DNA of 64,000 nucleotides from a virus: IMG/VR virus record IMGVR_UViG_3300020166_000747. One strand, written 5' to 3'. The notes beneath the pieces are model-generated. The model saw only the letters and a list, made by a program, of their open reading frames with translations, did not search any database and had not been told where the DNA came from. Both the position numbers and the translations under genes were made by a program. Within the stretch, counting starts at the first letter, position 1. Each line of letters begins with the position of its first letter. Below are positions 2,134 through 30,808 of the stretch, piece after piece.

Positions 2134-2901
2134 ATGATTAACGCTGATATTTTCGTTAAGAATACAGGTCTAGAAACAGGTAAGATTTACAATCAACCAA
2201 TTAGCAAAGTAGAACTACTTGCACTTGCTATTGTGGCACAGCGCATTAACGGTGAATACTTAAAGCGAGGTGGGGTGTCCGACTTTGTTACTAAGATCGA
2301 AGACGGCGAAGAAGTACAACGCTATGAACGTACCAAAAACTCTAATCGTTTTGTTATGGAAACAGTCCAGCAGATCGACCCAGATGTATTAACTGACGAG
2401 TTGCTTGCAGAAGCACAAGAGATGTTGACTAATCTTGAAATGGAATATATGTTCAAAGTTCTCGCAGATACAATGAATGACTTTGAAAATTCCATTCATC
2501 AGTTTCTATCAGACGAACCGGATGTATCACTAGATGGTTCTAATTTTGAACCACGTGCGCATATTGGGGTTGTTGCTTACATTCCAGCGTATGTAGAACG
2601 TGAGACAAAACAACGTGACCTTGCTGAACGTTCAATCGGTTCTGAGTATTTAGGAACTAAAGGTGAATCTATTTCCGCGCAGATTGAAATTGTATCTAAG
2701 CGCCAAGCAACTGCTTGGGCAGGTTGGAACGTAAATGCTATCACAACTGATGGCAATCGTGTTTCGTTCTTTACTACAAAAGATGAAATTTCTAATAAGA
2801 CTGGAGTGTTTGGTATATATGCGAAAGTCAAAGATTGTGGTACTGTTTGGCGTGAGGAAAGTATAAAAGAAACTCGCCTTAACTATGTGAAGTTTATTTA
2901 A
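2134..2901 (+). CDS. Hypothetical phage protein with probable C-terminal OB-fold
   Basis: 255 aa with RBS GAGAGG. The beta-rich C-terminus (SEYLGTKGE...ETRLNYVK) is a type seen in T4-like phage proteins. Confidence 0.6.
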   Translation: MINADIFVKNTGLETGKIYNQPISKVELLALAIVAQRINGEYLKRGGVSDFVTKIEDGEEVQRYERTKNSNRFVMETVQQIDPDVLTDELLAEAQEMLTNLEMEYMFKVLADTMNDFENSIHQFLSDEPDVSLDGSNFEPRAHIGVVAYIPAYVERETKQRDLAERSIGSEYLGTKGESISAQIEIVSKRQATAWAGWNVNAITTDGNRVSFFTTKDEISNKTGVFGIYAKVKDCGTVWREESIKETRLNYVKFI

Positions 2902-3823
2902 AATTCTCACGATATATTAAATCAGCAATATCTTTATTCATCGCTTCGCCGAAATGGCCCAATCCCAGTAGTTGGGCGGTCGGGTCATAATTTAAGTCAC
3001 GTCCGTATAAACTGTTTATTAACTCATACGGTTCCGGCGTCTGCAAATCGTTAAGTGAAAATTTCATTTCACCTTGTTCGTGTAATAATTTTAAATCATA
3101 CAATCGTGTATCTATAGGTTTAATCCAATTGGCATCATCGTTTTGATCGATGTATTTGTCAATAGCATAGTACTGTTTATTACCCAGCAATGTTTGCACA
3201 TCAATTGCAGTCATCCATTCATGGATTGAATTATGGCATTCTATATCAAAAAATACGGACGGGACCTTATCATGCACGATCCTTTTTTTCCGGGTAGCCT
3301 CATCAAATCCCGGCATAACATTAATTGATTCCCATCTGTTCCCATCGCCGTAATCTTCTAAATGCATCCACGTATGTCTAGTAGGGTAACTCCACAATAT
3401 TATTATTTTTTTAGGATTATACTGTTGCATGAACGTAATGGCATTGTTATGAATAGTTCGATTACTAGAGCCTGGTATGCCAGCATTAACAAACGGTTCT
3501 CCATACTCACGGGTTAATATTTCACTGATTGTGTTACTATTTTCAATTCCTTGACCATAGATATAAGAACACCCTATTACGACTGAAGTTTTGCTCCAGT
3601 CAATTTGGTCCAATTCTTGATTACATCTAAACCCATCACTGTTGTGTACATAATCTATTTTAGTATTTGTATACTTCCAATACTTAGAACTGAATACACC
3701 AAGGTTCTTTTTATGGTGTTCTTCTTCATTGTGTCCAGTGAACAATGTGGTCGATTTTTGAAAGCCAGATTTAATAAATCTTCTTTCTGGGAAACTGTTT
3801 AAATTAAATATATCTACGCTCAT
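2894..3823 (-). CDS. SGNH/GDSL hydrolase-like protein
   Basis: Motifs GCSYIYG, NAGIPGSSN and C-terminal GHF. The start was moved to ATG 3823 because the track extension overlaps the divergent gene. Confidence 0.65.
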   Translation of the reverse strand: MSVDIFNLNSFPERRFIKSGFQKSTTLFTGHNEEEHHKKNLGVFSSKYWKYTNTKIDYVHNSDGFRCNQELDQIDWSKTSVVIGCSYIYGQGIENSNTISEILTREYGEPFVNAGIPGSSNRTIHNNAITFMQQYNPKKIIILWSYPTRHTWMHLEDYGDGNRWESINVMPGFDEATRKKRIVHDKVPSVFFDIECHNSIHEWMTAIDVQTLLGNKQYYAIDKYIDQNDDANWIKPIDTRLYDLKLLHEQGEMKFSLNDLQTPEPYELINSLYGRDLNYDPTAQLLGLGHFGEAMNKDIADLIYRENFK

Positions 3824-3881
3824 ACATTTATTTATCTGCGTGTAATTTTTTTGGATAATAACTACAAACATAAATAGTAGT

Positions 3882-4652
3882 ATGAAAATAGTGTTAGTTA
3901 CAGGTGGGTTCGACCCATTACATTCAGGACATATTGCATATTTTAAAGCGGCAAAAGCGTTGGGTGACAAACTAGTTGTAGGTGTTAATACAGACGCATG
4001 GCTTACTAGAAAAAAAGGCAGCCCGTTTATGCCAAGCAGTGAAAGAATAGCAATAATTCAGAATTTAAAAATGGTAGATGATTGTGTAGTGTTCGATGAC
4101 AACGATGGCTCAGCCATAGATGCTATTAAAAATTTAAAAATATTATATCCAAATGATGATATTATCTTTGCTAACGGCGGTGACCGCACTAAAGAAAACA
4201 TTCCTGAAATGATTTTTGATGATGTTGAATTTGTATTTGGCGTAGGCGGTGAAGATAAAAAGAATAGTTCATCTTGGATACTAGAAGAGTGGAAAGCTCC
4301 TAAAACAATTAGATCATGGGGATATTATAGAGTGATACACGAATATGATAATCATACTAAAGTAAAAGAATTAGCAGTACCTCCGGGCGGGATGTTATCT
4401 ATGCAACGACATAAAGAACGTTCAGAACATTGGTTCGTAGCAGAAGGAACTGCAACTGTGAATACATTAAATTCTAGCAGTACTGATGTTGAAGAACATG
4501 GAGTATTTCATAAGCATCAATCATTACATATACCCGTAGGTATGTGGCATCAGCTTGTCAATGCACACGATACTGATTTAAAGCTAGTAGAGATACAGTA
4601 CGGAACTAATTGTGTAGAAGAAGATATTGAGCGAAATGACACGGTTCTTTAA
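3882..4652 (+). CDS. Cytidylyltransferase (HxGH, TagD/RfaE-like) fused to a mannose-6-phosphate isomerase type II-like cupin
   Basis: TGGFDPLHSGH and FANGGDR, then RSWGYY..LSMQRHKERSEHW..EIQYG. Confidence 0.85.
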   Translation: MKIVLVTGGFDPLHSGHIAYFKAAKALGDKLVVGVNTDAWLTRKKGSPFMPSSERIAIIQNLKMVDDCVVFDDNDGSAIDAIKNLKILYPNDDIIFANGGDRTKENIPEMIFDDVEFVFGVGGEDKKNSSSWILEEWKAPKTIRSWGYYRVIHEYDNHTKVKELAVPPGGMLSMQRHKERSEHWFVAEGTATVNTLNSSSTDVEEHGVFHKHQSLHIPVGMWHQLVNAHDTDLKLVEIQYGTNCVEEDIERNDTVL

Positions 4653-5859
4653 AGATGGGTGTTACGGAGAAGGATCAGATCCAACGTACCTAACACAATC
4701 ATTGATGTATGATCATGTAGAGTATATGCAGCATAAATTAGACATTCTGGAATACAATAAATTTAGACACGGTGATGATTACTTTTGGAACGTTGAACTT
4801 ACTGCTGAAAATCCTGATATACCAAGATTTCAGAAATCTGATGATATTAAGAAGCCATACAATATAGTGGTACCTGACAGTGTGCTGGAAGATATATTAC
4901 ATGGTAATGCTAGATTAGCGTTGAACTATTCACTTGAAGGGTTTACTGATATAGATTGGGATAGATTGTTCGCAGCAGTTCTTCCAATCCCTAAGGAAAA
5001 AATAATATATATAACGAGTGTTTACGATACCACCAAATTAGAGGCAGATAGTGGGATAAAATGCTATTATACAAATTATTGGGAGACATTACTACAGCGT
5101 ATTTGCCAGACTGGCAGTAGTTATTCGTTCACTGATCCTGACGCTGGTTGGAAACAGTTCAATAAACAAATTAAACTTATAGAACAAAAATACAATCGTA
5201 GTAAAATGTTCACCGCGTACAACCGAAGACCAAGAGAACACAGACTTGCGTTACTGGGTGACTTAAAGAATAAAAACTTATTACACAATGCAATCTATAG
5301 TTGGGGCGGGAAGTTCGAGACTGATTATGATACTAACACGTTGTGCCGCACCGTAAATAAACAATTTTTTGACGGCAATGACGAGAGTAAAATGTATCAA
5401 TATCTTATCGAAATTAACGATAAAATTGTTGAGCATGATGTATCCTTAGATATTAATCCAGCCTTTGTATTTAATTGGGATCATATATTTAATACTAATT
5501 TCCAGCTTATCACAGAAACCAATGCAGATTCCGATAGTACATTTCTAAGTGAAAAGAGTTTTAAACCTTTTGCATCTGGTCAACCATTTGTCATGTGGGG
5601 TGATGTATACACCGTAAACGCATTGCGTGAAAGTGGATATGATACATATGACCAGTGGATTAATCACTCATATGACACCGAAACAGACAATGCTAAGAGG
5701 TTACAGATGGTAATCAAAGAAGTTGAACGATTATGTGCAATCACTGAAAGTGATTGGCTAGACATGTTATACGACATGCTACCAACTATAGTTAAAAATA
5801 ATAGAAATTTCATGAATTCCAACTCTCGGTGCATCCAAAACAATTCTCATACACTCTGA
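4636..5859 (+). CDS. Putative glycosyltransferase-like protein (paralogue of 9036..10361)
   Basis: YNRRPREHR, then ITET..TFLSEKSFKPF..QPF, reminiscent of the GT10-like EK motif. Confidence 0.5.
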   Translation: MTRFFKDGCYGEGSDPTYLTQSLMYDHVEYMQHKLDILEYNKFRHGDDYFWNVELTAENPDIPRFQKSDDIKKPYNIVVPDSVLEDILHGNARLALNYSLEGFTDIDWDRLFAAVLPIPKEKIIYITSVYDTTKLEADSGIKCYYTNYWETLLQRICQTGSSYSFTDPDAGWKQFNKQIKLIEQKYNRSKMFTAYNRRPREHRLALLGDLKNKNLLHNAIYSWGGKFETDYDTNTLCRTVNKQFFDGNDESKMYQYLIEINDKIVEHDVSLDINPAFVFNWDHIFNTNFQLITETNADSDSTFLSEKSFKPFASGQPFVMWGDVYTVNALRESGYDTYDQWINHSYDTETDNAKRLQMVIKEVERLCAITESDWLDMLYDMLPTIVKNNRNFMNSNSRCIQNNSHTL

Positions 5860-5868
5860 ATTAAAAGG

Positions 5869-5897
5869 TTGACAGATATCGAATCGAGTGCTATATT
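5869..5897 (+). promoter_or_regulatory. Sigma70-type early promoter with a GANTC site in the spacer
   Basis: TTGACA-N17-TATATT. CGAATCG lies at 5880-5886 and CGAATCA at 5910-5916. Confidence 0.75.
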
Positions 5898-5938
5898 AAT
5901 AGTACGAAACGAATCATTAACAACAGAGAGTAAACTTT

Positions 5939-7651
5939 ATGAAAAACCTACTTCTAACAACTTCTGCATTGTTGGTACTGTCAGTCGCGTCAGCAAGTGC
6001 GAATGCAACCTCAGATGCACAACGTATGCTTAACAAGCTAGGCTATAATGCAGGAGCAGTTGATGGGGCTTACGGCAGTAAGACCAAACGTGCGCTTGAG
6101 GCATTCTACACAGATAACGGCACATCATATGACGGTACGTTAGATGCCAATGAAGTTTCGGATCTGAAAGCTGCAGCAGTTGAAGCTGGCGTAAAGTTCA
6201 ACGTACCTTCAGGTATTAGCGTAAGTGATCAATATCGTTTTGAAAACTTTGCAGGTCTTGTAAGCCTAAAGTACGCAAATGCAATTCGTCGCAGTTGGTT
6301 TGGATATATTGAAATCCCACTAATTGATACAAACGATGACGGCTACAAAGACCTTGTCTTTAACTCTGATGGTCCCGATTTCTTTAGACAACAGAAACTA
6401 GGAAAGAATGATGCTAATGTAGTCACAGTCCCATACAATGCTAAATGGAAAGATTGGGATATGTTTGAAACAGTAGAGTCTCCAAATAGCACATTCGGCA
6501 ACCCAATGATGCAATACGCTGACATGAATGGTGATGGTAGAGTTGATATCGTTGCTGCCACATCAGTCCCTGGCGGCAGCTTCAATGAAGGTGGCGCGGT
6601 TGTATACTTCAATCAAGGCGATGGTACATTCAAAACAAAGATGATTAGTCGCAAAAAGTTTACTCACGCACTAGCTATCGGTGATCTAGACGGCGATGGT
6701 GATCAGGATGTTATCTACCATCATCTAGGTGCAACAAGTATTCAATGTGAAATCAACGATGGTCGTGGTAACTTTAAACGTAAAAATTGTATGCGGGCAC
6801 CAAAGACATTCAATCAACCATACGCGCAAAACATTTGGAGTTTCCGCATTGCGGATTTCGATAACGATGGTGCGCAAGATGTAAGCATCTGGACAAATGT
6901 TGGTAGTTCGAAGGTAGATAATTCTTGGGGACAAGTAAGACAGAACGAGTTACAGCATCCTACAATTTTTTGGGGAGACAACAGTGTTAAGTTCTCTTAC
7001 AAAAACAAAACATCGCTAGATGTGACACCTTGGACAGACGGTGCACTACAATCAGGTAAGCCAGTCTTTTTAACTTCGAACGCAGGTACAACTGTTGATA
7101 TCGGGAAAGACGGTGATGTCGATTTAGTTACTATTCTAGTGGGTAAGCATTCAGTTGGTGGGGCTCTAGTCATTCATGAAAATTTAGGCAACCGACAATT
7201 TCGTACAAAAGAACTGACACGTTCGGTATTCTTAAAAAATGATCCAGATCGGTTTCGTACAATGCAAGATAAAACTGATCGGGTGAATAAAGCTAAAGAT
7301 TACACATGGTTAACTGAGAGCCTGGTATGGAATGATATGTGTGGTAACGTGATGTTCTTGGATATCAACAATGATGGCATTGATGACTTTGTATGCGGTG
7401 GCACTGGTTGGGATGACAACTCTGCAACAATCATTGATCGTTGGGATAATAATCAGAAAGATCATCAACGCATCATGCCGTGGATGAATACTAAAGATTG
7501 GAATCCTAACTGGAGCAGTAAAAACCGTTATGCTATTCTAGATATTCATGGCAACGTAAAAGATAGTGGTAAGATTTTTAACAATGAACAAAGCGATTTT
7601 TCAGCGAAGTTTAAATCTCGTGGTTATAAAATAGATACTATCGGTTTCTAA
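5939..7651 (+). CDS. Exported protein: signal peptide, peptidoglycan-binding domain and FG-GAP/VCBS repeats
   Basis: Signal MKNLLLTTSALLVLSVASASA. PG-binding segment AQRMLNKLGY..VDGAYGSKTKRAL. Repeated D-x-D/N-x-D-G-x-x-D motifs (DMNGDGRVD, DLDGDGDQD, DFDNDGAQD, DINNDGIDD). Confidence 0.8.
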   Translation: MKNLLLTTSALLVLSVASASANATSDAQRMLNKLGYNAGAVDGAYGSKTKRALEAFYTDNGTSYDGTLDANEVSDLKAAAVEAGVKFNVPSGISVSDQYRFENFAGLVSLKYANAIRRSWFGYIEIPLIDTNDDGYKDLVFNSDGPDFFRQQKLGKNDANVVTVPYNAKWKDWDMFETVESPNSTFGNPMMQYADMNGDGRVDIVAATSVPGGSFNEGGAVVYFNQGDGTFKTKMISRKKFTHALAIGDLDGDGDQDVIYHHLGATSIQCEINDGRGNFKRKNCMRAPKTFNQPYAQNIWSFRIADFDNDGAQDVSIWTNVGSSKVDNSWGQVRQNELQHPTIFWGDNSVKFSYKNKTSLDVTPWTDGALQSGKPVFLTSNAGTTVDIGKDGDVDLVTILVGKHSVGGALVIHENLGNRQFRTKELTRSVFLKNDPDRFRTMQDKTDRVNKAKDYTWLTESLVWNDMCGNVMFLDINNDGIDDFVCGGTGWDDNSATIIDRWDNNQKDHQRIMPWMNTKDWNPNWSSKNRYAILDIHGNVKDSGKIFNNEQSDFSAKFKSRGYKIDTIGF

Positions 7652-7707: not shown

Positions 7708-8940
7708 TTATTTTATTGTTCTAGTGTTGCCGTAATGCTCTACTATAACACCGCTAACAGCATTGAACTTTCTCCATGGGTCAACTACAATTGAACGTTC
7801 TGGAATATCACAATACAATGCATCTTTGTGTGAATTACCAGTGTACTCATACGTAGTAGATGCACTGTGCGCCATTAAAAATACTGCTGGGCCTGTTGAT
7901 GTTCTGTCATCATCTGTCATAGGGTCTACATACTCAACATCAATACCACACTCATTAATATACGTTGCAATCAACATACTATAACTTCCCTCTAAGTATG
8001 GGACATTTGGCTTATATGCCTTACCATGAATAACGATAGGTAGATTGTTTTCATTCGCATGTTTCATTAATCTTAACGCAATATTCTTAGCTTGTATCTC
8101 TCTTGCATTCATAATAGCATCAAACATATCATACCCCAAGTCTAGCTCTTCTGCCATATAACGTAACGCAATGTTATCACGTGGATGACATCCACCGCCA
8201 TCTCCCATGCCAGCAGTCATATATTGTGGCCCCATGATGCGCATAGTACTGTGTGCTAGTGCATTTGTTACTACGTCTACATTGATATTACCTTGCTTTT
8301 CTGCAACGTCTTGTATCATGTTTACTAGACCAATCTTAGCACTGATGAATGTATTGTAGAATACTTTTATTGCTTCGCATTCATCCCATGTACCAATCTC
8401 ATAACGTGGGTTGTTTTCCATAATTGTTTTATAGAAGTCAGTTAATTGTTTTGCATCTCCGTTGTGATCTCCATCTTCTGTGCCGATCATAACCATTTCT
8501 GGATTAACCATATCATATGCAACACTTCCCATGGCGATCAAGTAAGGGTTATATACGAAGCGTGGGTTAGTGATGTGCTGTACGAAGTGCTTACGGGTCG
8601 TCCCTGGCAGTACTGTGGAGATAAGAACAAGTAGTTGACTATCATTCATATGTTCATTTGCTTCTTTAATAACATCAATAACGATGTCATAGTTGAAGTC
8701 TTTGGGCGCCAAGTGTGCCGTCGGTGCATTACCATCATACATTGGGTCATGTGGGGTTGGTACCGCAACGAATACAATGTCTCGGTCTTTAACTAGTTCT
8801 TGTATAGTAGTAACTACAGTTATGTCATCACTTGTTCTGGGAGAGACATCATACCCCTTAACCTCATGTCCTTTTTGTGCAACTGCTTCTGCACATGGCA
8901 TCCCAAGTTTGCCAACTCCGATAAATCCAATCTTACTCAT
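7708..8940 (-). CDS. ugd: UDP-glucose/GDP-mannose dehydrogenase family protein
   Basis: Rossmann motif GFIGVGKLG, VAVPTP, STVLPG and the catalytic GGGCHPRD. Confidence 0.9.
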   Translation of the reverse strand: MSKIGFIGVGKLGMPCAEAVAQKGHEVKGYDVSPRTSDDITVVTTIQELVKDRDIVFVAVPTPHDPMYDGNAPTAHLAPKDFNYDIVIDVIKEANEHMNDSQLLVLISTVLPGTTRKHFVQHITNPRFVYNPYLIAMGSVAYDMVNPEMVMIGTEDGDHNGDAKQLTDFYKTIMENNPRYEIGTWDECEAIKVFYNTFISAKIGLVNMIQDVAEKQGNINVDVVTNALAHSTMRIMGPQYMTAGMGDGGGCHPRDNIALRYMAEELDLGYDMFDAIMNAREIQAKNIALRLMKHANENNLPIVIHGKAYKPNVPYLEGSYSMLIATYINECGIDVEYVDPMTDDDRTSTGPAVFLMAHSASTTYEYTGNSHKDALYCDIPERSIVVDPWRKFNAVSGVIVEHYGNTRTIK

Positions 8941-9035: not shown

Positions 9036-10361
9036 TCATTTTCGTTCTTCTATGTAAGAAAAATTAATACCGTTACGCTGATATGACGTAATAAGATTAT
9101 TATAATTTTGTTGTAATCGTGCTATGTATGTACCTTCAGAGGTTTTTCTCTTGAAAAAGTTTTGCCCCAATGATAGGTTCACCCGCTTAATCTCATCTCT
9201 CAATTCAAGCAACCTTAATTTAGTATCTTCAGTACTATCATACGAATGTGAAAACACATCGTCGAAGGTATCATATCCTAATTGTTTCAGCGCAGATACA
9301 GTACCGACATCCGCCCACGTTAAAAAGGGCTGACCTAATAGGAATGGTTTAAAACTTTTCTCACTTAGGAACGTAGTATCATTCGTAGCCCATGTCTCGC
9401 ATATAAATTGATAATACGTATCGCTAAGATGATCTATATTGATAGTATTAACTAAATTTATATGCAGGTCTTCGGTTGATTCTTTACCGTTCTGAAGATT
9501 ACCCCACGATAGTACTTCCTTAATTGAATCTGTATATTCAATACCAGTGTAATTTACATACTGATATCGTATAAAGTCGTTGGTAGACTCATTGACATTA
9601 TTTAATTGAACAGTAGTATATTGATCTACCGATCCTCCCCAACTCCATATCATAGTGTCGAGTAAATTTTCTTTATGTAATACTGACATTGCATTAATTC
9701 TATGATCTCTTATTCGTCTATTATAGAATGTGTTCATGTACTTGCGGGTTTCATTTTGGACGAGATCATTTTTATACTTATCTAGGTAAGATTTGATATT
9801 CTGAGGCGTGTGCATTCCAAGACCTGCGCAACTCCGTTCCCAGTAGTTTATCCACATTAATGTAATACCTGATGGGTCTGTTACAGGAGTGTTATAACGA
9901 TAATCGCCGGTTAGAAAAATCACACTACTCGGTTCAACGCCTAATAGTTTTTTAACATAGTTCATGTTTATACTATGATAACCTTCAAGCGCATGAAATA
10001 CCAATACCTTAACTTTACCTGCATTGATCTGTTTCCTAATATTATTAGGAATGTTAAATATTATATTATTCTGAATGAAATATTCATTAAGTTTGTCTGG
10101 ATCATTGTAAATTTCCTCCAATTGCTCCAAATGTGCAACACCTCTAGTCATCTGAGGCGAAATTGCATTCATAGCGAACTGATTAAAGTTTCCCTCAGAA
10201 TAGCACGATATTAAATAATATATCGTATCGTCATCTCCGTGATCAGTATTACGGAACTCTACCTGAGGTAATATAGTTAACGTGCTTAGTTCATCTGAAT
10301 TAACAATGTTATGGGGATAAAATTCTTCTTCTGACTGTACATATAGATATCTATTTGTCAT
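9036..10361 (-). CDS. Putative glycosyltransferase-like protein (paralogue of 4636..5859)
   Basis: Shares LEG, NYWE, YNRR..HR, WSWGG, ET..TFLSEKSFKPF..QPF and HSYD blocks with its paralogue. Confidence 0.5.
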   Translation of the reverse strand: MTNRYLYVQSEEEFYPHNIVNSDELSTLTILPQVEFRNTDHGDDDTIYYLISCYSEGNFNQFAMNAISPQMTRGVAHLEQLEEIYNDPDKLNEYFIQNNIIFNIPNNIRKQINAGKVKVLVFHALEGYHSINMNYVKKLLGVEPSSVIFLTGDYRYNTPVTDPSGITLMWINYWERSCAGLGMHTPQNIKSYLDKYKNDLVQNETRKYMNTFYNRRIRDHRINAMSVLHKENLLDTMIWSWGGSVDQYTTVQLNNVNESTNDFIRYQYVNYTGIEYTDSIKEVLSWGNLQNGKESTEDLHINLVNTINIDHLSDTYYQFICETWATNDTTFLSEKSFKPFLLGQPFLTWADVGTVSALKQLGYDTFDDVFSHSYDSTEDTKLRLLELRDEIKRVNLSLGQNFFKRKTSEGTYIARLQQNYNNLITSYQRNGINFSYIEERK

Positions 10362-17004: not shown

Positions 17005-18228
17005 CTACGTGTGATACTTAGTCTTAACACTGTCCCACGTACTTTGCATTTCTGCATTAGTATCTTTTCCACAGAAAATTGAACAAGTGCGTAAGCGTTT
17101 ATTTCTTACATTGTTATCGTTAAAGTTTTCGACATATTTTTCTTGGAACATTGGACCATCAATTATATCTTTCAGTGTAACATGGCGAAGAGAAATTTTA
17201 TCTTTACCATAATCATTGATAAACGATTTTAATTGTGATGTTTCTTCATTATCATATGCATAATACTTGCTTGCAGTGAAGCAACAGGGCCATACTAATC
17301 CTTCACTACTGACAAAGAAACTATCGGATTTCAAAACTAGACAATCAATTTTTGTAGAACCTAAATCTTTTTCCCATTGGGTCAATGGTCTAGTGTTATC
17401 CATTTTAAATGGCTTCGGAATATACTTAGGCCTATGTTCCTCTAACTTAAAAGTTTTTAATGCGTGTTTCGATTCTACATCCTCGCCGTCAACCTTGTTA
17501 AACGTTGTCTTACTAATATAATCCTTGATGACATTATTTTGCCAGCGACCTTCCATTGGAGGTTCAAGTACATAATCTAACTGTCCAGTTTCATTAAACA
17601 CATGCATTGCCGGAGTAGCCACTCTATCCGTATCACTATTGACAAATCCGAGTGCCTTTTTATGAAAGAAGTGATCAAACCCCATTTCTTTAGCTAGTGC
17701 CTCTGCTTCAGTAACTTGATGTTGATTGTGCTTGAATACTAAATAATCCCAACGTGCAGTTCCGCCAGCCCCTATATAATTTTTGGCTGCGGACATAATC
17801 TTATGCCAGTGAGTCCCACGACGATAGATATGGTTCGTATCTTCTAACCCATCGATACTAAAAGTAACATGCCCGTTACTACCGACAAGCCTACCTAAAT
17901 CCTGCCAGAACTTTTCATTACGTCCACTTGCATTAGTATTCATAGTCACTTTGATGTTTGGATTCAATTCCTTTGTGTACTCTAGAATTGAAATCAATTC
18001 TGGGTTTGTCATCGCATCGCCATAATTACCACAGAAAGAAATAGAAAATAATCTAGAGATTAATTCAACTGGGAACCATTTTTTGTATTGTTCTAACGTA
18101 ACATACGTTTCTGTAAACATCGGATTCTTTATACCGCCGGATTGTCGTCTGTTACAAACCGGACATAATGCGTTACACAAGCTGCTCACTTCTAAGTCCA
18201 AATGTTGTAGTCTGTCATATGTATACAT
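17005..18228 (-). CDS. Radical SAM protein with C-terminal SPASM/Twitch domain
   Basis: CNALCPVC, FCGNYGD, FSIDG and C-terminal C..GLVWPCC..CSIFC. Confidence 0.9.
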   Translation of the reverse strand: MYTYDRLQHLDLEVSSLCNALCPVCNRRQSGGIKNPMFTETYVTLEQYKKWFPVELISRLFSISFCGNYGDAMTNPELISILEYTKELNPNIKVTMNTNASGRNEKFWQDLGRLVGSNGHVTFSIDGLEDTNHIYRRGTHWHKIMSAAKNYIGAGGTARWDYLVFKHNQHQVTEAEALAKEMGFDHFFHKKALGFVNSDTDRVATPAMHVFNETGQLDYVLEPPMEGRWQNNVIKDYISKTTFNKVDGEDVESKHALKTFKLEEHRPKYIPKPFKMDNTRPLTQWEKDLGSTKIDCLVLKSDSFFVSSEGLVWPCCFTASKYYAYDNEETSQLKSFINDYGKDKISLRHVTLKDIIDGPMFQEKYVENFNDNNVRNKRLRTCSIFCGKDTNAEMQSTWDSVKTKYHT

Positions 18229-18230
18229 AA

Positions 18231-23624: not shown

Positions 23625-25182
23625 ATTTTACCTCGTATTCTTCTTTAGCTTCATTCCAAAAGTCTGTCATTTCAGGGAATGTTTCTAAGAAATTTAGTCC
23701 CCTACGCTTATCATACTGTGTAAAGTATTCGTAGAAACGAATTAACTTATCACTTAATTCTGCGTCACTCATATTTAGTCCTTCTTTTGCCCAAGCCAAA
23801 TCACGCTCAAGTTTTAAGACTTCATAGTTCTTAAATCCAGTATACTTACGTCCATACAAATCATTTGGTAGAACATTTGCTTTCATGTAATCGATATTGC
23901 TTTGAATAGTATCAAGCATGATTGGATCTGCTAGTTGAATTGTCATCCAGTCTGGATAACGTAAGTAAGGAATATCAAACCAAACACGTTGACGTTTCTT
24001 GCGCACAAATTTTGGATGCTTAAATCCATTTCGGTCGGGAGGCTGAATAACTTTGTCTTCTTGATTTTCATACCCAAATTCTTCGCGCAACTTTAGAATC
24101 ATATCTAAGAACCCACGTAAATTTGGTATACTAAGGAGAGTAAAAGTGTTAATAAACGAAATCTCTGTACCATCTGTTTCAGACAATACTCGACGGCAAT
24201 TTTCATACATCGTATCAAAATCAAGGCCATCACGAAGATATTCAGCCTGCTTCCCGACACTATCAACACTAACATATAAACTAAAATGCTTACATGCTGG
24301 TGCGACATACCAATGATTTCCGCTATCTGGGTTGAAACGTTCTGGATCTTCCCAAACGCGGACTTCTTCTAATTTCTGTATTTTCTCAATGAACTTATCC
24401 ATTAACGCTGGTTGAGGAGGCGCCATGTTTGACGTAATACTCAAGTCTAAGAATGCGTTTGGATTTTCATTGACATAATCTAATACTTTGAATGTATTCT
24501 TATCCATAAGAGGTTCACCACCTGTCATTCGGAATACTTTCAATTCGTTGTACACTTCTGGAAACCATTTCCAAAATGCTTCAATATAAGGATTATCTTT
24601 ACGTGCTACTTCAAGTGGCATCATACCAGTCTTACGTAGATAATCAATATCATTATGCCCAGTACCGTTAGCAAATCTAAAGCCACCATGTTTCTTAACA
24701 TCATCTTCCCATGCAGTAGATAGATGCGGAGAACAATAAGAACACTTTAGATTACATGCTTGATTGAAATTTACTTCAACGTATCGCGGTGTTATCTTGT
24801 GATCCCAAGGATTGTTTACTACTTCGTCCCATGCTTCTTTGACCCACCACTCACTACTGCGATAGTGTCTATCACTTAGACGACCACCTTCCGGGGCATT
24901 CGGTGCATCTTCTACATTCCAACAATACTGACAACCTTCAGGACGTTCACCCTGCAACATTTGCTTACGCTCTTGCATCTTAAATGTTGTATTGTGTAAT
25001 GCACCTACATCTTTTTTCAGTTCATCTAACGGAATAGCATGTGTAGGTGGATGATAACAACTATGTGTACGGCCTTGCGGCAGATGCAAACTTACTTGCA
25101 ACCACTTTGCCATACACATAGATGGTGAAATAGAATTTAGCTTTTGACGTGTGCTTACTGCATCGTCATCATAATTTGACAT
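23614..25182 (-). CDS. Radical SAM protein with N-terminal Twitch domain
   Basis: MCMAKW..SCYH..CQYC, then CNLKCSYC and TGGEP. Confidence 0.9.
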   Translation of the reverse strand: MSNYDDDAVSTRQKLNSISPSMCMAKWLQVSLHLPQGRTHSCYHPPTHAIPLDELKKDVGALHNTTFKMQERKQMLQGERPEGCQYCWNVEDAPNAPEGGRLSDRHYRSSEWWVKEAWDEVVNNPWDHKITPRYVEVNFNQACNLKCSYCSPHLSTAWEDDVKKHGGFRFANGTGHNDIDYLRKTGMMPLEVARKDNPYIEAFWKWFPEVYNELKVFRMTGGEPLMDKNTFKVLDYVNENPNAFLDLSITSNMAPPQPALMDKFIEKIQKLEEVRVWEDPERFNPDSGNHWYVAPACKHFSLYVSVDSVGKQAEYLRDGLDFDTMYENCRRVLSETDGTEISFINTFTLLSIPNLRGFLDMILKLREEFGYENQEDKVIQPPDRNGFKHPKFVRKKRQRVWFDIPYLRYPDWMTIQLADPIMLDTIQSNIDYMKANVLPNDLYGRKYTGFKNYEVLKLERDLAWAKEGLNMSDAELSDKLIRFYEYFTQYDKRRGLNFLETFPEMTDFWNEAKEEYEVKYGA

Positions 25183-26160
25183 TTAATGTCCGCTCCAACC
25201 AGTGGTTTTTTCTGTTGCTAATGGATTCTTTACTCTTGGGGGATTTGAGTATACTCGCTTGAAAAATGCTGCTACTTCTGGAGTTGGATCACATAGTTCC
25301 ATACCAATCTTATCAACTAAGATATCACCGATACGCAAACATTCATCAAACAACTTATCATAGTCCCATTCTACTTTTGTGTTTTCGCATTTCATTTCAC
25401 CGCCTTTAAATGGTGGGAAGACTTCGTTTTCGAAATACTCTTTGAACCAATCATAGCTAGAAATGTTTTCTAGTACGAAATCAGGGTTAAGATTGATATC
25501 ATAGCAACCAAGACGTGCGCCGAATAATGCCCAGATGCCGTTCTCTACATCAGAACCAATGTTACACCATGTAATTAAACGCTCATAGTTCTTAGGCCAG
25601 ATACGTTTCTTAAAGTCTTCTACAGGAACTTTCTTACCTTCATCAAGTGACATTTTAGCACCTTCACGATAACCAGCACGGAATGCTTGGAACGGTGATC
25701 CTGCATTATATACGAGTGAGTACACATTGTTCATCTGAATATAGTTCAAGTCCCAACAGAAGTCAACCTTTTTTGTTTCATCTTCTGCATTTTCATGTGT
25801 CTTCATATCAAGTACAAGTTGTACTGGCCAGCATTTAATTCCGCCGTTGCCATAAACAAGTCCGTTCACAACGTTCTTCGCTGACCATGAGATAACCGAG
25901 TTAGCTAAGTCAGTGTCTTCTGGGAACGTAAGTTCAATATCAAAGAACTTTTCATCTACGATGTTATCACCGTCGATAGTAATAAATCTGTCTGTATCAC
26001 TTTGTCTCGCACATTCCTTGTGCGCATTATCAAAACCTTTAACGCCATCTACACGTTTTGCAAATGGAAACTTCTGTAGCAAGTCTGCCCAGTGTTTCTC
26101 TTTATTTGGTTCATCGTAACTTAGATAAAAGATATCTAGTTCACCAATTTCTAGTTTCAT
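25183..26160 (-). CDS. Putative GT-A glycosyltransferase
   Basis: LSYDEP..GVKG..AH..FITIDGDN (DxD)..YGNGG..FRAGYREG. Confidence 0.6.
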   Translation of the reverse strand: MKLEIGELDIFYLSYDEPNKEKHWADLLQKFPFAKRVDGVKGFDNAHKECARQSDTDRFITIDGDNIVDEKFFDIELTFPEDTDLANSVISWSAKNVVNGLVYGNGGIKCWPVQLVLDMKTHENAEDETKKVDFCWDLNYIQMNNVYSLVYNAGSPFQAFRAGYREGAKMSLDEGKKVPVEDFKKRIWPKNYERLITWCNIGSDVENGIWALFGARLGCYDINLNPDFVLENISSYDWFKEYFENEVFPPFKGGEMKCENTKVEWDYDKLFDECLRIGDILVDKIGMELCDPTPEVAAFFKRVYSNPPRVKNPLATEKTTGWSGH

Positions 26161-26162
26161 TC

Positions 26163-26738
26163 TTATGCTCTCCTTAACGAATAACTATCAAAATACTTAC
26201 GAGTGTAAATACTTATATCGTATTTATAGTCGTAGTTAATTGTTACTTTTTCACCACTCAGCAAATCACTAAACTTAATCATTTGCATACTAATCAGGAA
26301 CTCTGGTTTATCTTTGTGTGTAATAAAGAAAGGATGTGAATCAGTTCCAGCAACTACAACTGATTGGTTCTTGTCTACGTTTGAACGTGCTACTAGGTCA
26401 TCACTTGCACTGATAACAACAGCATCATCTGTCATTTCTATATTGATATCAGCACCATCAATTTCTACAATCTTTGATATTTGGTTCTCTGCACTACGTT
26501 GCTTAATATTAACTTTACGCTTTACAATATCATATATCAATGGATTGTCACTACGCTTTACAGTATAATCTGAAAACTTATATGTACCATCGATAAACGG
26601 AAGAATATCATCTAGTTCAAATATCGCATACATGTTATCAGTGTCATCTGTTCTTCCACTGATACTTGTTATGGTACCAGTGTCATCAAAGTATACATAT
26701 CTGTTTGTTCTATTTTCTTCTAATGTACTTGTAATCAT
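26163..26738 (-). CDS. Hypothetical protein
   Basis: The start at 26738 makes an ATGA overlap with the upstream stop. Confidence 0.65.
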   Translation of the reverse strand: MITSTLEENRTNRYVYFDDTGTITSISGRTDDTDNMYAIFELDDILPFIDGTYKFSDYTVKRSDNPLIYDIVKRKVNIKQRSAENQISKIVEIDGADINIEMTDDAVVISASDDLVARSNVDKNQSVVVAGTDSHPFFITHKDKPEFLISMQMIKFSDLLSGEKVTINYDYKYDISIYTRKYFDSYSLRRA

Positions 26739-27592
26739 AACACTGCCTTTTCGTAAGTCGCAATCTTTTCTTGTGTCATCCATTCTTTCTGTACATAGTG
26801 TACTGGAAGGTTCTGAACAAAGTTACCGATACGAACTTCAAGATTGTCTGCTAATTCACTTGGGATACTCTTTGTCCAGATGTTATCAATCTTTGCTCTT
26901 TCAATATTCTGAACATGTGATTTCATATGAACGAATGTAGGAACATCCTTAATATCATAATCGCACACAACTTCTTCAATGTCAAGTAGTTTAATCGCAA
27001 GAGCATATGCCATATCAGCACTCATCCAATTCTGACCGATACCTTTAAGAAACTTATCGTAGTAAACATTCCAATGTGTCATAATAAGTTCAATCATACG
27101 GAAAAACTCATATGCAGGTTGTGTCTTTTTAAAATACGAAAAGTTGCTGTATACGTCTGGCAGTTCTAGTTCTGTAAACTTCTTACGGTAGAAGTCATCT
27201 ACTACATCTTCGCCGCGAAATGTTTTTACGTTTGTACAACACCATACGTCTTTAGTAGCTAGATAATCCCACCAATGATCCACGCTGTGTGTAAACACCA
27301 TATCACTATCCAAGATAATCGTTTCATCAAACGGAGACATGTGAATGTACTTCCACTTATTATGAATCTTCCAATTATCTGTACCAGCATCATCATTCCA
27401 AGGAATATCTACAATATGGTCAAAGACTTTACGGTGTTTATCTTGTACTAAACTCTTAGTGTGTTCATCTACGCATACACAAATTGCGTTCTCTTGCTGT
27501 GTGGCTTTTAAACTAAGTGCTAGAGCATATGTCATTTCTAGGTAGTCAAACTCATTATTATTCTGAGCAATTACAATGTAACCTTTACTCAT
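26735..27592 (-). CDS. GT8-like glycosyltransferase
   Basis: ALALSLK..NKW..SPFDETIILDSDM (DxD)..FVHMK. Confidence 0.65.
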   Translation of the reverse strand: MSKGYIVIAQNNNEFDYLEMTYALALSLKATQQENAICVCVDEHTKSLVQDKHRKVFDHIVDIPWNDDAGTDNWKIHNKWKYIHMSPFDETIILDSDMVFTHSVDHWWDYLATKDVWCCTNVKTFRGEDVVDDFYRKKFTELELPDVYSNFSYFKKTQPAYEFFRMIELIMTHWNVYYDKFLKGIGQNWMSADMAYALAIKLLDIEEVVCDYDIKDVPTFVHMKSHVQNIERAKIDNIWTKSIPSELADNLEVRIGNFVQNLPVHYVQKEWMTQEKIATYEKAVL

Positions 27593-28455
27593 AGTGTTTC
27601 TCCTAGTTCTAACATCATATCAACATTACGTTCAATCGCACGTTTATTCATAATATGTAAATCTGTATTAGTGAAGCGGGACAACAAGTGTTCTTCGATT
27701 GTTTCTGCTTTAGCACAATACATGATAACATCATTCGCACTATTTACCCTAAAGATATCATCTAAGTCAAACGAGTTGTTAAGATAGTCTATAGGAAGTG
27801 ACGGCGCACTAAATGCTACATTTCCGTTTAACATGTGCAATGCAATTGCAAATGCAAAATCGTTTCTAAACAGATTACCAGAGCAATTGTATAGAGCATA
27901 ATAGTATTTGTAGTTGTACTTGATATGTGTGATTAGATTGAACAAGTTTTCTGCGAACTCGCTCTTTCTAAAGAAGAACACAGTCGCCCAACACATTGGA
28001 ATAGTAAAATCATCAATATAGGAAACATTACCGCCATGTCTACCAGCAATGTCCCTATATTGATAATTAATCATGAAGTCATTCTCGCTTCCCCATACCT
28101 GGTCAAGTGTGTCACTCATTATAAAGTAATCACAGTCAATGACCAATGTTTCTTCATATGGTGAAAGTTCATATACTTCACTGCGTCCCATATTTTTAAA
28201 GGATGCATACTCAGGACTGTTCGCAGTATCTTTGAACAGTCTAGTATTCTCTGGTTGAAAGTTATCTGAAATAATAGTTCTATCAAAATATTGCTTGATT
28301 AGTTCCGGATGTTCATCTGCCGAGGCGCTATCTGTAACGAGACAAATTTCGTCAAATTCACTAAGATTTTTCCTAGCATAACCAGCACTTGCACATGCAA
28401 TCTTCACATAATCAACGTAACCATTATTTCTTGCAAAAAGAATAATACCGCGCAT
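27589..28455 (-). CDS. GT8-like glycosyltransferase
   Basis: SPYEETLVIDCDY (DxD)..WATVFFFRK..FRNDFA..HIMNK; paralogue of the adjacent gene. Confidence 0.65.
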   Translation of the reverse strand: MRGIILFARNNGYVDYVKIACASAGYARKNLSEFDEICLVTDSASADEHPELIKQYFDRTIISDNFQPENTRLFKDTANSPEYASFKNMGRSEVYELSPYEETLVIDCDYFIMSDTLDQVWGSENDFMINYQYRDIAGRHGGNVSYIDDFTIPMCWATVFFFRKSEFAENLFNLITHIKYNYKYYYALYNCSGNLFRNDFAFAIALHMLNGNVAFSAPSLPIDYLNNSFDLDDIFRVNSANDVIMYCAKAETIEEHLLSRFTNTDLHIMNKRAIERNVDMMLELGETL

Positions 28456-28835
28456 TAGATTTCAAGTACCTTTTCAATCTTGCGTGAACTACGCAATTTT
28501 TGATAGTCATTGTAGTACTCATTGATTACTTCGAAGTAAAGACTGCTAATATCTTCTAAAAACTTTTCAGTGTCATCAATTTGGATTGGAATATCATTCT
28601 TGTCCAATAAAATTAGACTTGTCTTACCAGATACAACAGCCATATTTACAAAAGCAATAAGCTCCTGTGATACGCGGAATGTACCGCCATTAGTGCTGTG
28701 TGACAATAGGTTTTGTGTCTTGACTTTAAGATTATTCTTAGCCAAGTTAAATGTTTGCATTGTGTTTGAAAAGTCCAGTGCTTTAGCAAGACGTTCTTGT
28801 TCAGCACTAGAGGAATTGATAGTTTCGTTTGACAT
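28455..28835 (-). CDS. Hypothetical protein, first gene of the GT/radical-SAM operon (possible tail-fibre assembly factor)
   Basis: 126 aa with an AGGAGA RBS. Confidence 0.65.
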   Translation of the reverse strand: MSNETINSSSAEQERLAKALDFSNTMQTFNLAKNNLKVKTQNLLSHSTNGGTFRVSQELIAFVNMAVVSGKTSLILLDKNDIPIQIDDTEKFLEDISSLYFEVINEYYNDYQKLRSSRKIEKVLEI

Positions 28836-28859
28836 GGTTATTCTCCTAATATTACTTCT

Positions 28860-28888
28860 ATTATATAGAAATATTAGAGAAATGTCAA
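28860..28888 (-). promoter_or_regulatory. Consensus sigma70 promoter driving the GT/radical-SAM operon
   Basis: Minus strand TTGACA-N17-TATAAT, preceded by TAACAC as at 54493 and 59051. Confidence 0.85.
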
Positions 28889-28891
28889 GTG

Positions 28892-29866
28892 TTAAAGTTC
28901 AGAAATATGAGAATATGTCGGAGTTGGAGTAACAACACCTAATCCAGATACATCATTATCATCTGCACGTTGTTGATCAATCGTTACAGTAAGTGTGCCT
29001 TCTGTATAGTCAGTGCCTGTCCAAGTGCCACCACCGTCATTTGTCCATGTACCTGTATCAGATACGTGACCATCATTGTATTCAATCTTAACATCAATCG
29101 CAGAACCATTTGTTTTCGCATACACATTAAGTTGGTTTTGTACATAATCACCAATGCCACCTTTTGTATACACAAGCGCATATGTTGCAGTTAGACCAGT
29201 AAATCCTACACCCGGAGTACCAACACTTGCTGAACTTTCTGTAGAATTATTTGATAATTTAACAGTTGCAATATCTGTTAATAAATCCGCCCATGCATCA
29301 CTTTGTGCATGTGATATATCATAACCTGTTAATTCAGTTGATATACGAATTTCACCACCTGAGTTAAAGAAGTTACGCATTGCATCTGTATCTGAGAATG
29401 TAGTTTTGAATTCGTAATTTTGTGGGTTATTTGAATTATCCCAATGATTACCTGTTGATCCAGGATCTACGAATGTCTTTGATGACGAAATTTTGTTTGT
29501 CTCAAGCGTCATCAAAGAGATGTCGTAGTTTAGTTTATTAGCACGAACACTAGTAATATCATTTTCTAGGTCTGGAATTAACTGAATGATTTTGTTTGGT
29601 GCTGGGAAATCTGAGTCACTAGTACTAGCCGGAATATTAATAGCTGTTGATTGGTGTTGAGCGGCGAACTTAATAGATGTTAATAGTTCATCCCAATTCG
29701 CCGCCCGTACTTTTGAACCAGCGGTCACAAGAGTTACCAGTAGCTGTGATTGGCCATAACCCGAATCACCTGCCCCTAATCCAACAATCTCATTAATATC
29801 ATTTGCGAAACCGTTGAAATCAGATGCCCTGATTTTGCCTCCCAGATAGTAACTTTGTGGTGCCAT
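28892..29866 (-). CDS. Virion structural protein (baseplate/short-fibre-like)
   Basis: Ser/Thr/Gly-rich. FFNSGGEIRIS is shared with the adjacent paralogue. Lies in the tail module. Confidence 0.6.
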   Translation of the reverse strand: MAPQSYYLGGKIRASDFNGFANDINEIVGLGAGDSGYGQSQLLVTLVTAGSKVRAANWDELLTSIKFAAQHQSTAINIPASTSDSDFPAPNKIIQLIPDLENDITSVRANKLNYDISLMTLETNKISSSKTFVDPGSTGNHWDNSNNPQNYEFKTTFSDTDAMRNFFNSGGEIRISTELTGYDISHAQSDAWADLLTDIATVKLSNNSTESSASVGTPGVGFTGLTATYALVYTKGGIGDYVQNQLNVYAKTNGSAIDVKIEYNDGHVSDTGTWTNDGGGTWTGTDYTEGTLTVTIDQQRADDNDVSGLGVVTPTPTYSHISEL

Positions 29867-29890
29867 TTAATTTGTCCTCAGTGTATTATT

Positions 29891-30808
29891 TTATAATGTA
29901 TTTGTTACTGTACATGTTGGGTTAGTCAATACCACCGAACCACTTGCATTCGATAATTTTAGTGAAGAAACATTTACAGTTGATGTACCTGCCACGCTAT
30001 CTGCACCAGTCCAAGACCAAGCACCGCCATAACCAGAGCCTGAACCAGTACGTGCAACGTGTGCGTCTACTAGACGTACTGTGATGTAAAGGTCTGAACC
30101 AGAAATGTAAGCTGAAATGTCTGCATAGTTTGATGAATAATCACCGTCGTCTGCATACTCACGTTTTACATAAGCGTTTGATGATGTTAAGTCTGAGTAC
30201 TTCTTACGTGTTGATGTATCAATGTTAGTTGAATCTGTCGCACGAACCGAGAAACGATATGTTCCCATTTCACCTGTAAGTTGTTCCCATGAAGTGCCTT
30301 GTTGGTTACCTGTTGGATCATCGTGTGACATTGAAACGCGAATTTCACCGCCAGCAGCGAACCAGGCATGCATATTAGTTGTTGAACCGAAAGCTACTTT
30401 CGTTACTGTATCACGTGTGCCGTTCCAGTTTGAAACAGTTTGCGTTGTTTCTGTTGCAGTTGTTGTGTCCCAACCTGATGAATAGCTCCATGGTGAGTTG
30501 AAACGTGTGTTAATATCGCTTTCAAATGTTGCCGCGGCGCCCGCATAGTGTGACCATGCAACGACTGTGCCTGCATTTACTGCTGTAAATGGGTTTGTAA
30601 TATTATAATAGTTTGAAATTTTTGCTGCTGCCGAGTAAAGTGAATCGAAGTATGCATCATCGATTAAATCACCTGTACTTGGGTTAGCAGCAATTGTGTG
30701 ACCTTGGTTGTAACCACCTGCTACACCTGTTCCGTTAAGAATAGTGTTCATTTTGGTACGTAGGCTTGCAAATGGGTCATTTGCATTAATTGTATCTCCT
30801 ACAGCCAT
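29891..30808 (-). CDS. Virion structural protein (paralogue of 28892..29866)
   Basis: Ser/Thr/Gly-rich, with WFAAGGEIRVS. Confidence 0.6.
   Translation of the reverse strand: MAVGDTINANDPFASLRTKMNTILNGTGVAGGYNQGHTIAANPSTGDLIDDAYFDSLYSAAAKISNYYNITNPFTAVNAGTVVAWSHYAGAAATFESDINTRFNSPWSYSSGWDTTTATETTQTVSNWNGTRDTVTKVAFGSTTNMHAWFAAGGEIRVSMSHDDPTGNQQGTSWEQLTGEMGTYRFSVRATDSTNIDTSTRKKYSDLTSSNAYVKREYADDGDYSSNYADISAYISGSDLYITVRLVDAHVARTGSGSGYGGAWSWTGADSVAGTSTVNVSSLKLSNASGSVVLTNPTCTVTNTL

Follow-up and report, generated by a model that had tools for sequence, protein, structure and literature searches.

A conserved glycosyltransferase and radical SAM operon behind the baseplate genes of an aquatic jumbo phage: a candidate glycan-building and tailoring system

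Why does an uncultured marine T4-like phage carry, directly behind genes for its distal baseplate, some 26 kb of genes for sugar activation, glycosyl transfer and radical chemistry, and on what would their products act? The question is raised by the IMG/VR virus record IMGVR_UViG_3300020166_000747, of which a stretch of 64,000 nt (hereafter the window) was analysed; PHROG and tblastn searches identified it as part of the genome of a T4-like jumbo myovirus. An original prediction, made from the sequence alone, had proposed that positions 2894-30808 encode a complete pathway for building and tailoring a glycan. Our searches agree that sugar-nucleotide genes, glycosyltransferases (GTs) and radical S-adenosylmethionine (SAM) enzymes are concentrated in this island and that they abut virion genes. 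In the reading that we favour, tentatively, a soluble system would build and tailor a glycan carried by distal baseplate or fibre proteins of the phage itself; that the product is sugar-based, whatever its acceptor, we consider probable.

The centre of the island is a run of 11 minus-strand genes, from 28835 to 17005, each of which overlaps the next or lies no more than 2 nt from it, and for this reason we regard them as one operon. In order, they encode u126, GT8a, GT8b, u206, GTX and six radical SAM enzymes:

28455..28835, minus strand: u126, first gene of the core operon, small and Cys-free, overlapping the next gene by 1 nt
27589..28455, minus strand: GT8a, GT8-like GT-A transferase with invariant D107 and D109
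26735..27592, minus strand: GT8b, GT8-like GT-A transferase with invariant D95 and D97
26163..26783, minus strand: u206, a variably conserved member of the core
25183..26160, minus strand: GTX, transferase of GT-A fold (GT2-like) with invariant D63-G-D65 and a helical C-terminal domain
23614-25182, 22074-23624, 20681-22081, 19414-20697 and 18231-19421, minus strand: five N_Twi radical SAM enzymes in tandem (NF033640)
17005..18228, minus strand: sixth radical SAM enzyme, last gene of the core operon (Radical_SAM 6.5e-7, C-terminal SPASM 8e-4, phrog_21308)

The two small proteins gave no lead from family searches: u126 has no Pfam or PHROG match, with just four invariant residues in its alignment, and u206 has no family match in permissive Pfam/NCBIfam scans. 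The idea that u126 is the Cys-rich precursor of a peptide made on the ribosome and modified after translation (RiPP) was rejected on the grounds that it contains zero Cys and only those four invariant residues.

GT assignments were based on fold or profile, and on this basis five transferases of the island were supported: one GT-A, two GT8-like and two GT-B. GTX is the most conserved gene of the module, with 2943 metagenomic homologues (protein clusters). It has no Pfam family and the PDB profile search gave nothing useful. Its AlphaFold2 (AF2) model, built with 24 homologues (pLDDT 86.9), shows a GT-A fold in residues 1-155, with a Z of 10.0 to B4GALNT1 (rmsd 3.1, 140 residues aligned), 9.9 to STIV A197 and 8.6 to PBCV-1 A64R, the structure of which (2p6w) is also the best Foldseek match. 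The peptide S-glycosyltransferases SunS and ThuS are further fold matches, and the GTs are almost equalled in score by nucleotidyltransferases that share the fold (MobA Z 9.4, IspD 9.2). Since the DxD motif is present and the G-rich loop is absent, GTX is presumed to catalyse a transfer.

The profile of GT8b matches glycogenin-1 and -2 (E 6e-6, residues 3-108), and no LgtC or Waa enzyme was found at E up to 1. For GT8a the PDB profile search gave nothing useful; it is a paralogue of GT8b by BLASTP, and the two profiles are related (hhalign 99.5%). The DxD motif is invariant in both (D95/D97 of GT8b in 15 homologues, D107/D109 of GT8a in 17), and the single-sequence Pfam match is marginal (Mannosyl_trans3, 0.0078). 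By their nucleotide-sugar-binding half and this motif, we class both proteins as GT8-like, with the GT-A enzymes of the glycogenin/LgtC type.

The tandem radical SAM enzymes belong to NF033640 (N_Twi_rSAM, twitch domain-containing radical SAM protein), whose curated cut-off is a whole-protein score of 170 bits: the five genes at 18231-25182 score 354.5, 220.6, 331.8, 304.7 and 305.1 bits, and the sixth enzyme, at 52.9 bits, is not a member. An alignment of the five shows no variation at C6, C76, C79, C132, C136, C139 and G197-P200, and almost none at C25; that is, four N-terminal Cys (three invariant, C25 nearly) precede the CxxxCxxC core, and the GGEP motif is conserved. Of the five genes, 18231-19421 is the most conserved. 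With BtrN, BlsE, SkfB, CteB and the TvgB-type enzyme 8vpo they share a radical SAM core and an auxiliary iron-sulfur (Fe-S) domain, and the twitch of BtrN aligns to the N-terminal Cys region. They differ from these twitch/SPASM enzymes in that a permutation places their auxiliary domain at the N terminus, and the similarities are weak (E 1e-9 to 1e-2) and do not separate sugar from peptide substrates. We found no known reaction for NF033640 in the literature, and the array has no nucleotide match in cultured phages; elsewhere, 12 radical SAM genes have been noted in one T4-like genome from the sea and discussed for Fe-S supply (PMC5332604).

A species-genome scan placed the cellular N_Twi enzymes mostly in metagenome-assembled genomes (MAGs) of predatory Bdellovibrionota, in arrays of 2-9 copies, some of them on Mb-scale chromosomes. 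Tandem arrays of up to 9 copies are a feature of the family both here and in Bdellovibrionota. These array loci (within L085-L163, e.g. L095, L112, L114, L121 and L162) include six that also hold a GTX homologue. Some contigs labelled as MAGs (L092, L145) resemble mis-binned phage DNA. Among 116 open reading frames (ORFs) neighbouring the cellular genes on 19 large contigs, the commonest families were radical SAM (7) and then Glycos_transf_2 (6), and a carbamoyltransferase and PfkB sugar kinases were found as well; the top neighbour families of this set included none of the RiPP recognition, protease or exporter type. The cellular neighbourhood gives modest, independent backing to a sugar-linked role for these radical SAM enzymes.

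Comparison with related phages separated a fixed part of the island from a variable one. IMG/VR holds at least 590 stretches with GTX, from which the best 80 loci were taken, and the window proteins were mapped on 82 loci. GT8a and GT8b occur in 77 of these, u126 in 71, N_Twi enzymes in 67 and u206 in 22-24 (E below 1e-5). Where enough DNA was available, 64 of 71 loci have u126 and GT8a upstream in the same orientation, and 51 of 56 have at least one N_Twi gene downstream, the copy number ranging overall from 0 to 8. The structural genes (giant protein, u226, ST) are found upstream in 53 of the 57 loci with enough upstream DNA and in Ralstonia phage RsoM2USA, so the co-orientation of the GT/radical SAM operon behind fibre and baseplate genes, pointed out in the original prediction, is a kept arrangement. 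RsoM2USA is the only cultured phage with the core, and searches of other cultured phages returned no GTX or GT8b homologue. Its genes are as follows:

ORF355: ST1-like
ORF354: u126
ORF353: GT8a, 34% identical
ORF352: GT8b, 41% identical
ORF351: u206-like, a weak match
ORF350: GTX, 47.5% identical
ORF349: single N_Twi radical SAM enzyme
ORF348: GTX paralogue

ORF355 to ORF348, all annotated as hypothetical, lie downstream of gp6, a 2541-aa structural protein and the sheath. The occurrence of the same gene order in a soil phage indicates that these enzymes and the phage's own fibre proteins stay together in phages whose hosts are very different. Across the 82 loci and RsoM2USA, only u126-GT8a-GT8b-(u206)-GT-A-radical SAM is fixed.

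Directly upstream of the core operon are the genes that supply the candidate acceptors:

28892-29866, minus strand: ST1, Ser/Thr-rich distal baseplate/fibre protein and candidate acceptor (S+T 21%, 0 Cys)
29891-30808, minus strand: ST2, Ser/Thr-rich ST1 paralogue and candidate acceptor (S+T 26%, 1 Cys)
30886-31566, minus strand: u226, context gene
31607-40594, minus strand: giant fibre/baseplate protein of 2995 aa, context gene

ST1, for which the PDB profile search gave nothing useful, and ST2 are paralogues (BLASTP, E 1.5e-12), and their S+T content compares with 10-14% in the island enzymes. That they are Ser/Thr-rich virion proteins, as had been proposed, is supported by homologues in Pseudomonas phage PA5oct: EST35_0123 (ST1 homologue) and EST35_0126 (u226 homologue) are annotated as virion proteins detected by electrospray ionization tandem mass spectrometry (ESI-MS/MS), as is EST35_0128, the positional equivalent of the giant protein. 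In PA5oct the u226 and ST1 homologues share one baseplate block, with a gp10-like protein next to them; in the window, the block with u226 and the giant protein (30886..40594) matches phrog_11259. Some ST1 homologues carry Gly-Tyr repeat insertions (GYGGY runs) in their variable C-terminal part (L082:6023-7054, L010:871-1944, L013:6171-7241).

The core operon has its own promoter. A 12/12 sigma70 consensus, TTGACA-17-TATAAT, lies at its head (28860..28888, minus strand), and in 27 of 71 loci a strict form of this motif stands shortly before the u126 homologue, the background being 0.008 per stretch of that size. Because the consensus is perfect and conserved upstream of u126 homologues, the operon is very probably transcribed by host sigma70, as an early-type unit. 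No terminator was found between the fibre genes and the operon, and read-through from the late fibre genes is possible.

The rest of the island consists of the following genes:

2894..3970, minus strand: SGNH-like protein with a GCS motif, weak paralogue of 10351-11331 (public gene calls start 33 codons later)
3882-4652, plus strand: fusion of an RfaE-domain-II-like nucleotidyltransferase (CTP_transf_like, 3e-15) and a PMI-type cupin (mannose-6-P-isomerase-type cupin, 6e-22)
4627-5859, plus strand: glycosyltransferase of GT-B fold, following the fusion gene
7708..8940, minus strand: NDP-sugar dehydrogenase of UDP-glucose type (UGDH), with UDPG_MGDP_dh N, central and C domains
9036-10361, minus strand: GT-B paralogue of 4627-5859 (BLASTP)
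10351-11331, minus strand: SGNH-like protein, at motif level
11288-11731, minus strand: HRG-motif protein, at motif level
11759-12358, minus strand: HAD protein, beta-phosphoglucomutase subfamily (Pfam/NCBIfam)
12351-13049, minus strand: sugar-1-P nucleotidyltransferase, weak (AglF 1e-12, phrog_3980 3e-36)
13051-14097, minus strand: RuBisCO-like protein (RLP; RuBisCO_large catalytic domain, 7e-26)
14125-14832, minus strand: SGNH-like protein, at motif level
14829-15155, minus strand: small cupin-like protein (PDB Cupin_2 at E 0.2, a weak lead)
15228-16999, plus strand: paralogous pair of the phrog_13607 family (15228/16166 paralogy by BLASTP)

Most of the gene inventory of the original prediction stood: the fusion, the dehydrogenase, the nucleotidyltransferase (weakly), the HAD protein, the RLP and the six radical SAM enzymes were all recovered with Pfam/NCBIfam, but the three SGNH-like proteins and the small cupin remain at the level of motifs or weak leads. 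In the former, inspection by eye shows block-I-like GDS or GCS motifs and, at the C terminus, a GH, with no Pfam, NCBIfam or PDB match in permissive scans; for the cupin-like protein and for 11288-11731 permissive Pfam/NCBIfam scans returned nothing, and a PDB profile search with the latter gave nothing useful. The dehydrogenase scores 168 bits in NDP-sugDHase, just below the cut-off of 189.8. About seven GT-like proteins had been counted, of which five have fold or profile support, but the 15228/16166 pair, with no Pfam/NCBIfam match in permissive scans, owes its GT label to the Atlas label alone. GT folds were recovered for GTX (GT-A, Z about 10) and for 4627-5859, whose AF2 model (pLDDT 71, N-terminal 75 residues disordered) is GT-B with Z 9.0-9.8 over 230-300 aligned residues to structures that include FUT9, FucT, Gtf3 and T4 AGT/BGT; the PDB profile search with the GT-B family gave nothing useful. 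The predicted pairing is confirmed by BLASTP for 4627/9036, 15228/16166 and 26735/27589, and extends to 28892/29891.

The RLP alignment keeps the KPK and K-x-D-E motifs, with Q at the H294 position and no Lys at K334, and because of these two replacements the protein is not a carboxylase but of form IV (RuBisCO-like). It scores far below the cut-off of all NCBIfam equivalogs, and tblastn found no homologue in 50,697 cultured phage records. In two IMG/VR contigs (L001/L002) an RLP that is 75% identical, each time followed by the nucleotidyltransferase, lies directly after four radical SAM genes and GTX, with homologues of the nucleotidyltransferase, 14829 and 11288 adjoining the array; 16 N_Twi-type matches were counted on this 203-kb contig. 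As a speculation, the RLP may handle 5'-deoxyadenosine-derived sugars released by the radical SAM enzymes.

These genes form separate units, namely the minus-strand run 15155-9036, the dehydrogenase, the plus-strand pair 3882-5859 and the convergent phrog_13607 pair. The proposal of late promoters in front of several units held in part: the motif TATAAATA precedes 10351-11331, the RLP gene and GTX (25183), but it is not enriched (8 in the window vs 8.75 expected), and the head of the GT/radical SAM operon is of sigma70 type. Five of the 8 copies are on the correct strand and within 70 nt of the gene start that they precede. Three overlapping copies (a TATAAA hexamer repeat; 11335-11354, minus strand) stand inside the 3' end of 11288-11731, directly before 10351-11331; the copy before the RLP gene is at 14126-14133, and the one before GTX is inside u206. 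A second 12/12 sigma70 consensus, with an extended -10, is found at 14555-14583 (minus strand), inside 14125-14832 and about 460 nt upstream of the RLP gene.

The idea of one complete pathway did not survive, since there are at least four transcription units of very different conservation. The core (17005-28835) is near-universal among the relatives, but the UGDH, GT-B, CTP-cupin and RLP units are rare, being found near it in 2 to 15 of 82. By type, the counts are 14 for GT-B, 19 for a second GTX, 9-10 for UGDH, 4 for SGNH-like, 2-3 for CTP-cupin and 2 for the RLP unit. Where present, these cassettes lie inside or just after the radical SAM array and are co-oriented with it, as for UGDH and GT-B in L021, L024, L047 and L076; CTP-cupin stands directly after GTX in L056, L064 and L077.

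Gene families and folds, the structure of the operon, synteny, conservation and promoter motifs were observed here; from them we infer substrates, order of steps, acceptor and timing of expression as follows. The system would have two layers. The first would be the fixed core operon (28835 to 17005, minus strand), expressed from its own sigma70-type promoter behind the distal baseplate/fibre genes; the second would be a set of cassettes that vary from phage to phage, represented here by UGDH, the RfaE-like nucleotidyltransferase-cupin, the GT-B pair, the RLP/nucleotidyltransferase/HAD genes, the SGNH-like proteins and the extra radical SAM enzymes. The cassettes would turn host sugar phosphates into unusual NDP-sugars, which the three core GT-A enzymes would add sequentially to a cytoplasmic acceptor, most likely Ser/Thr or Tyr side chains of the phage ST/fibre proteins before assembly. 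The twitch-type radical SAM enzymes might then edit these sugars through reactions such as oxidation, epimerisation, deoxygenation or C-C chemistry, and differing enzyme sets would result in a different decoration in each phage lineage.

The cytoplasmic acceptor is indicated by the absence of transmembrane, Wzx, Wzy and ligase-type proteins: the island enzymes have zero transmembrane segments, and none of those export and ligation types was found among them. Polysaccharide secretion in the style of chlorovirus hyaluronan was rejected for the lack of a membrane-embedded synthase and of any transmembrane enzyme. We count in favour of a virion acceptor that the closest GT-A structures of GTX include the viral protein-glycosylating enzymes PBCV-1 A64R and STIV A197, and that the core GT-A enzymes as a group are similar, by fold or profile, to GTs that are viral or act on proteins. 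The PBCV-1 A064R system, the Mimivirus fibril cluster and mycobacteriophage capsid/tail glycosylation likewise combine soluble viral GT-A/GT-B enzymes with NDP-sugar genes near structural genes, with no membrane export; they differ in having no radical SAM arrays, the identity between GTX and A64R is about 11%, and the acceptor here is a candidate only. A bolder version, which we think unlikely to hold in full, sees the core as a viral protein-decoration machine in which the GT-A enzymes would build a glycan on the fibres and the N_Twi enzymes would radically edit either the glycan or the fibre protein; cassette swaps would then diversify the virion surface between near-identical phages, and the Bdellovibrionota arrays would mark a shared surface chemistry.

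Several observations weigh against a sugar-based decoration of the virion. The sigma70-type promoter suggests early expression, like that of DNA-modifying or host-takeover genes and not together with the late virion proteins. Structural similarity is moderate (Z near 10, Foldseek E near 2e-3). The nearest solved relatives of the radical SAM core are peptide maturases (8vpo cyclopropyl synthase 9e-10, SkfB 1e-8, CteB 3e-5), and the sugar enzymes BlsE and BtrN score below them. Bacterial GT8 enzymes mostly build the core of lipopolysaccharide (LPS), and peripheral LPS-core GTs are also devoid of membrane helices. Lastly, T4-like genomes have a hyperplastic insertion site (PMC7029224), and the position at the end of the structural module may reflect no more than that.

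Some of these points suit a conversion of the host envelope, in which the soluble GTs would modify the LPS core or a lipid-linked glycan early in infection, blocking superinfection or the re-adsorption of progeny, with the cassettes supplying odd sugars. The presumably early promoter at the head of the operon and the usual role of bacterial GT8 enzymes agree with it, and variable cassettes would suit an arms race at the cell surface; published work on pelagimyophage host-recognition clusters also reads their GT8, UGDH and rfaE genes in this way (PMC7029224). However, the island has no flippase, polymerase, ligase or any membrane protein, and the glycogenin match of GT8b, with no LgtC or Waa enzyme up to E of 1, does not point to LPS. 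The core trio is 34-47% identical in a Ralstonia soil phage and is also found in marine, freshwater and estuarine phages, whose host envelopes should differ although the adjacent phage proteins are shared; this reading would need one conserved acceptor across unrelated hosts. We therefore judge it unlikely.

The maturase relationship instead raises the direct radical modification of a phage protein or peptide (ST1/ST2, u126, u206 or a small peptide), followed by glycosylation according to the logic of glycocins or mycofactocin. SunS and ThuS among the fold matches of GTX would fit, as would a 37-codon gene beside a carbamoyltransferase just upstream of the window. This possibility appears weaker again, since family scans and neighbour families revealed no RiPP recognition element, PqqD domain, leader peptidase or exporter; moreover, Cys is almost absent from u126, ST1, u226 and the giant protein, so that thioether chemistry on them is excluded, u126 has only its four invariant residues, and the candidate substrates persist even though the radical SAM copy number ranges from 0 to 8.

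It is also conceivable, but improbable, that the 26 kb are not one system and that the core alone is a functional unit, the cassettes being independent auxiliary metabolic genes in a hyperplastic region. The units differ in promoters and orientations, UGDH, GT-B, CTP-cupin and RLP units accompany the core in just 2-15 of 82 loci, and T4-like genomes gather accessory genes at module borders (PMC7029224); yet the cassettes are inserted inside or directly after the array in its orientation, and all their families concern activated sugars. Finally, radical SAM enzymes take part in thymidine and deazaguanine hypermodification, and the GTs might glycosylate modified phage bases and the radical SAM enzymes tailor the adduct, shielding the genome from restriction. 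Despite the early-type promoter and the T4 alpha- and beta-glucosyltransferases among the GT-B fold matches, this is the least probable account: dozens of other GT-B enzymes match equally well, the thymidylate-synthase-type hydroxymethylase, nucleotide kinase and dCTPase that adjoin known DNA-glycosylation clusters (PMC13326640) are all missing from the island of the 64-kb window, with no hydroxymethylase near it, and the sole thymidylate synthase homologue of a complete 362.8-kb relative lies about 160 kb from the module, the homologue in a close relative being a canonical ThyA above three equivalog cut-offs.

The nearest published parallel to the island is the host recognition cluster (HRC) of pelagimyophages and cyanomyophages, described at annotation level with GT8, rfaE-like, UDP-glucose dehydrogenase and radical SAM cassettes and fibres (Zaragoza-Solas et al. 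2020, PMC7029224). Both are large hypervariable islands in the structural region, with fibres, GT8, sugar-nucleotide genes and swappable radical SAM cassettes. The present island belongs to a jumbo lineage, whose relatives measure 320-363 kb and whose gp6 shares about 33% identity with that of SCTP-2 and Rak2-type phages. It follows the baseplate/giant-fibre genes (gp6), whereas the HRC is flanked by VrlC and gp14, and the HRC paper did not define a fixed core (u126-GT8-GT8-u206-GTX-N_Twi) headed by a sigma70 promoter of its own. Given these different flanking landmarks, we consider the island an analogue of the HRC in another lineage and not the same locus. We found no literature on marine jumbo phages with radical SAM enzymes and glycosyltransferases, nor a description of the fixed core with its own sigma70 promoter, of its presence in a culturable Ralstonia phage, or of its link to the N_Twi family and the Bdellovibrionota arrays.

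The lineage of the window is evident from genes beyond the giant protein, identified by PHROG and tblastn:

40597-44835: gp6-like wedge protein, adjoining the giant protein (33-35% identity to Salicola SCTP-2 and Rak2/121Q-type phages of 340-440 kb)
44837-45271: gp25-like
47701-49464: gp5-like
54555-55451: gp55 late sigma factor
57065-58861: gp46-like

Window proteins have exact matches on marine metagenome contigs of up to 141 kb, and one radical SAM gene has 80-90% relatives on contigs of 290-343 kb. A family of early-type plus-strand promoters, TTGACA-N16-17-(TG)CTAyATT, was noted at 1390-1417, 2077-2104, 5869-5897, 54499-54527 and 59057-59085. The sigma70-type promoter at 54499-54527 precedes gp55, which in T4 is an early or middle gene, and the same type precedes three small or secreted-protein genes. 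The promoter at 5869-5897 serves 5939-7651 (plus strand), which encodes a signal peptide, PG_binding_1 and FG-GAP/VCBS repeats; with no homologue in any of the 82 related loci, this protein probably stands outside the glycan system. At the start of the window are an acyl-carrier-type PP-binding protein (47-301, plus strand; 1.6e-11) and, 3' of it, a 342-aa protein without known function (323-1351, plus strand). A public contig that extends upstream (L164:1-9979) carries a radical SAM gene, DUF6071, a 37-codon ORF, an O-carbamoyltransferase and a 1100-aa protein. From the PP-binding gene and these upstream genes, the island must be larger than 2894-30808.

Because RsoM2USA can be cultured and has a minimal core with one radical SAM gene, the function of the core is directly testable. 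Should the host envelope be the target, the result would bear on superinfection exclusion among marine phages. A product carried by the virion would make it the first bacteriophage particle shown to have its glycans tailored by radical SAM chemistry. The favoured reading, if true, would give the N_Twi family its first substrate class and would explain why up to a sixth of these genomes goes to Fe-S enzymes, in a group of aquatic jumbo phages that is very abundant (>590 IMG/VR stretches, 2943 protein clusters for one core gene).

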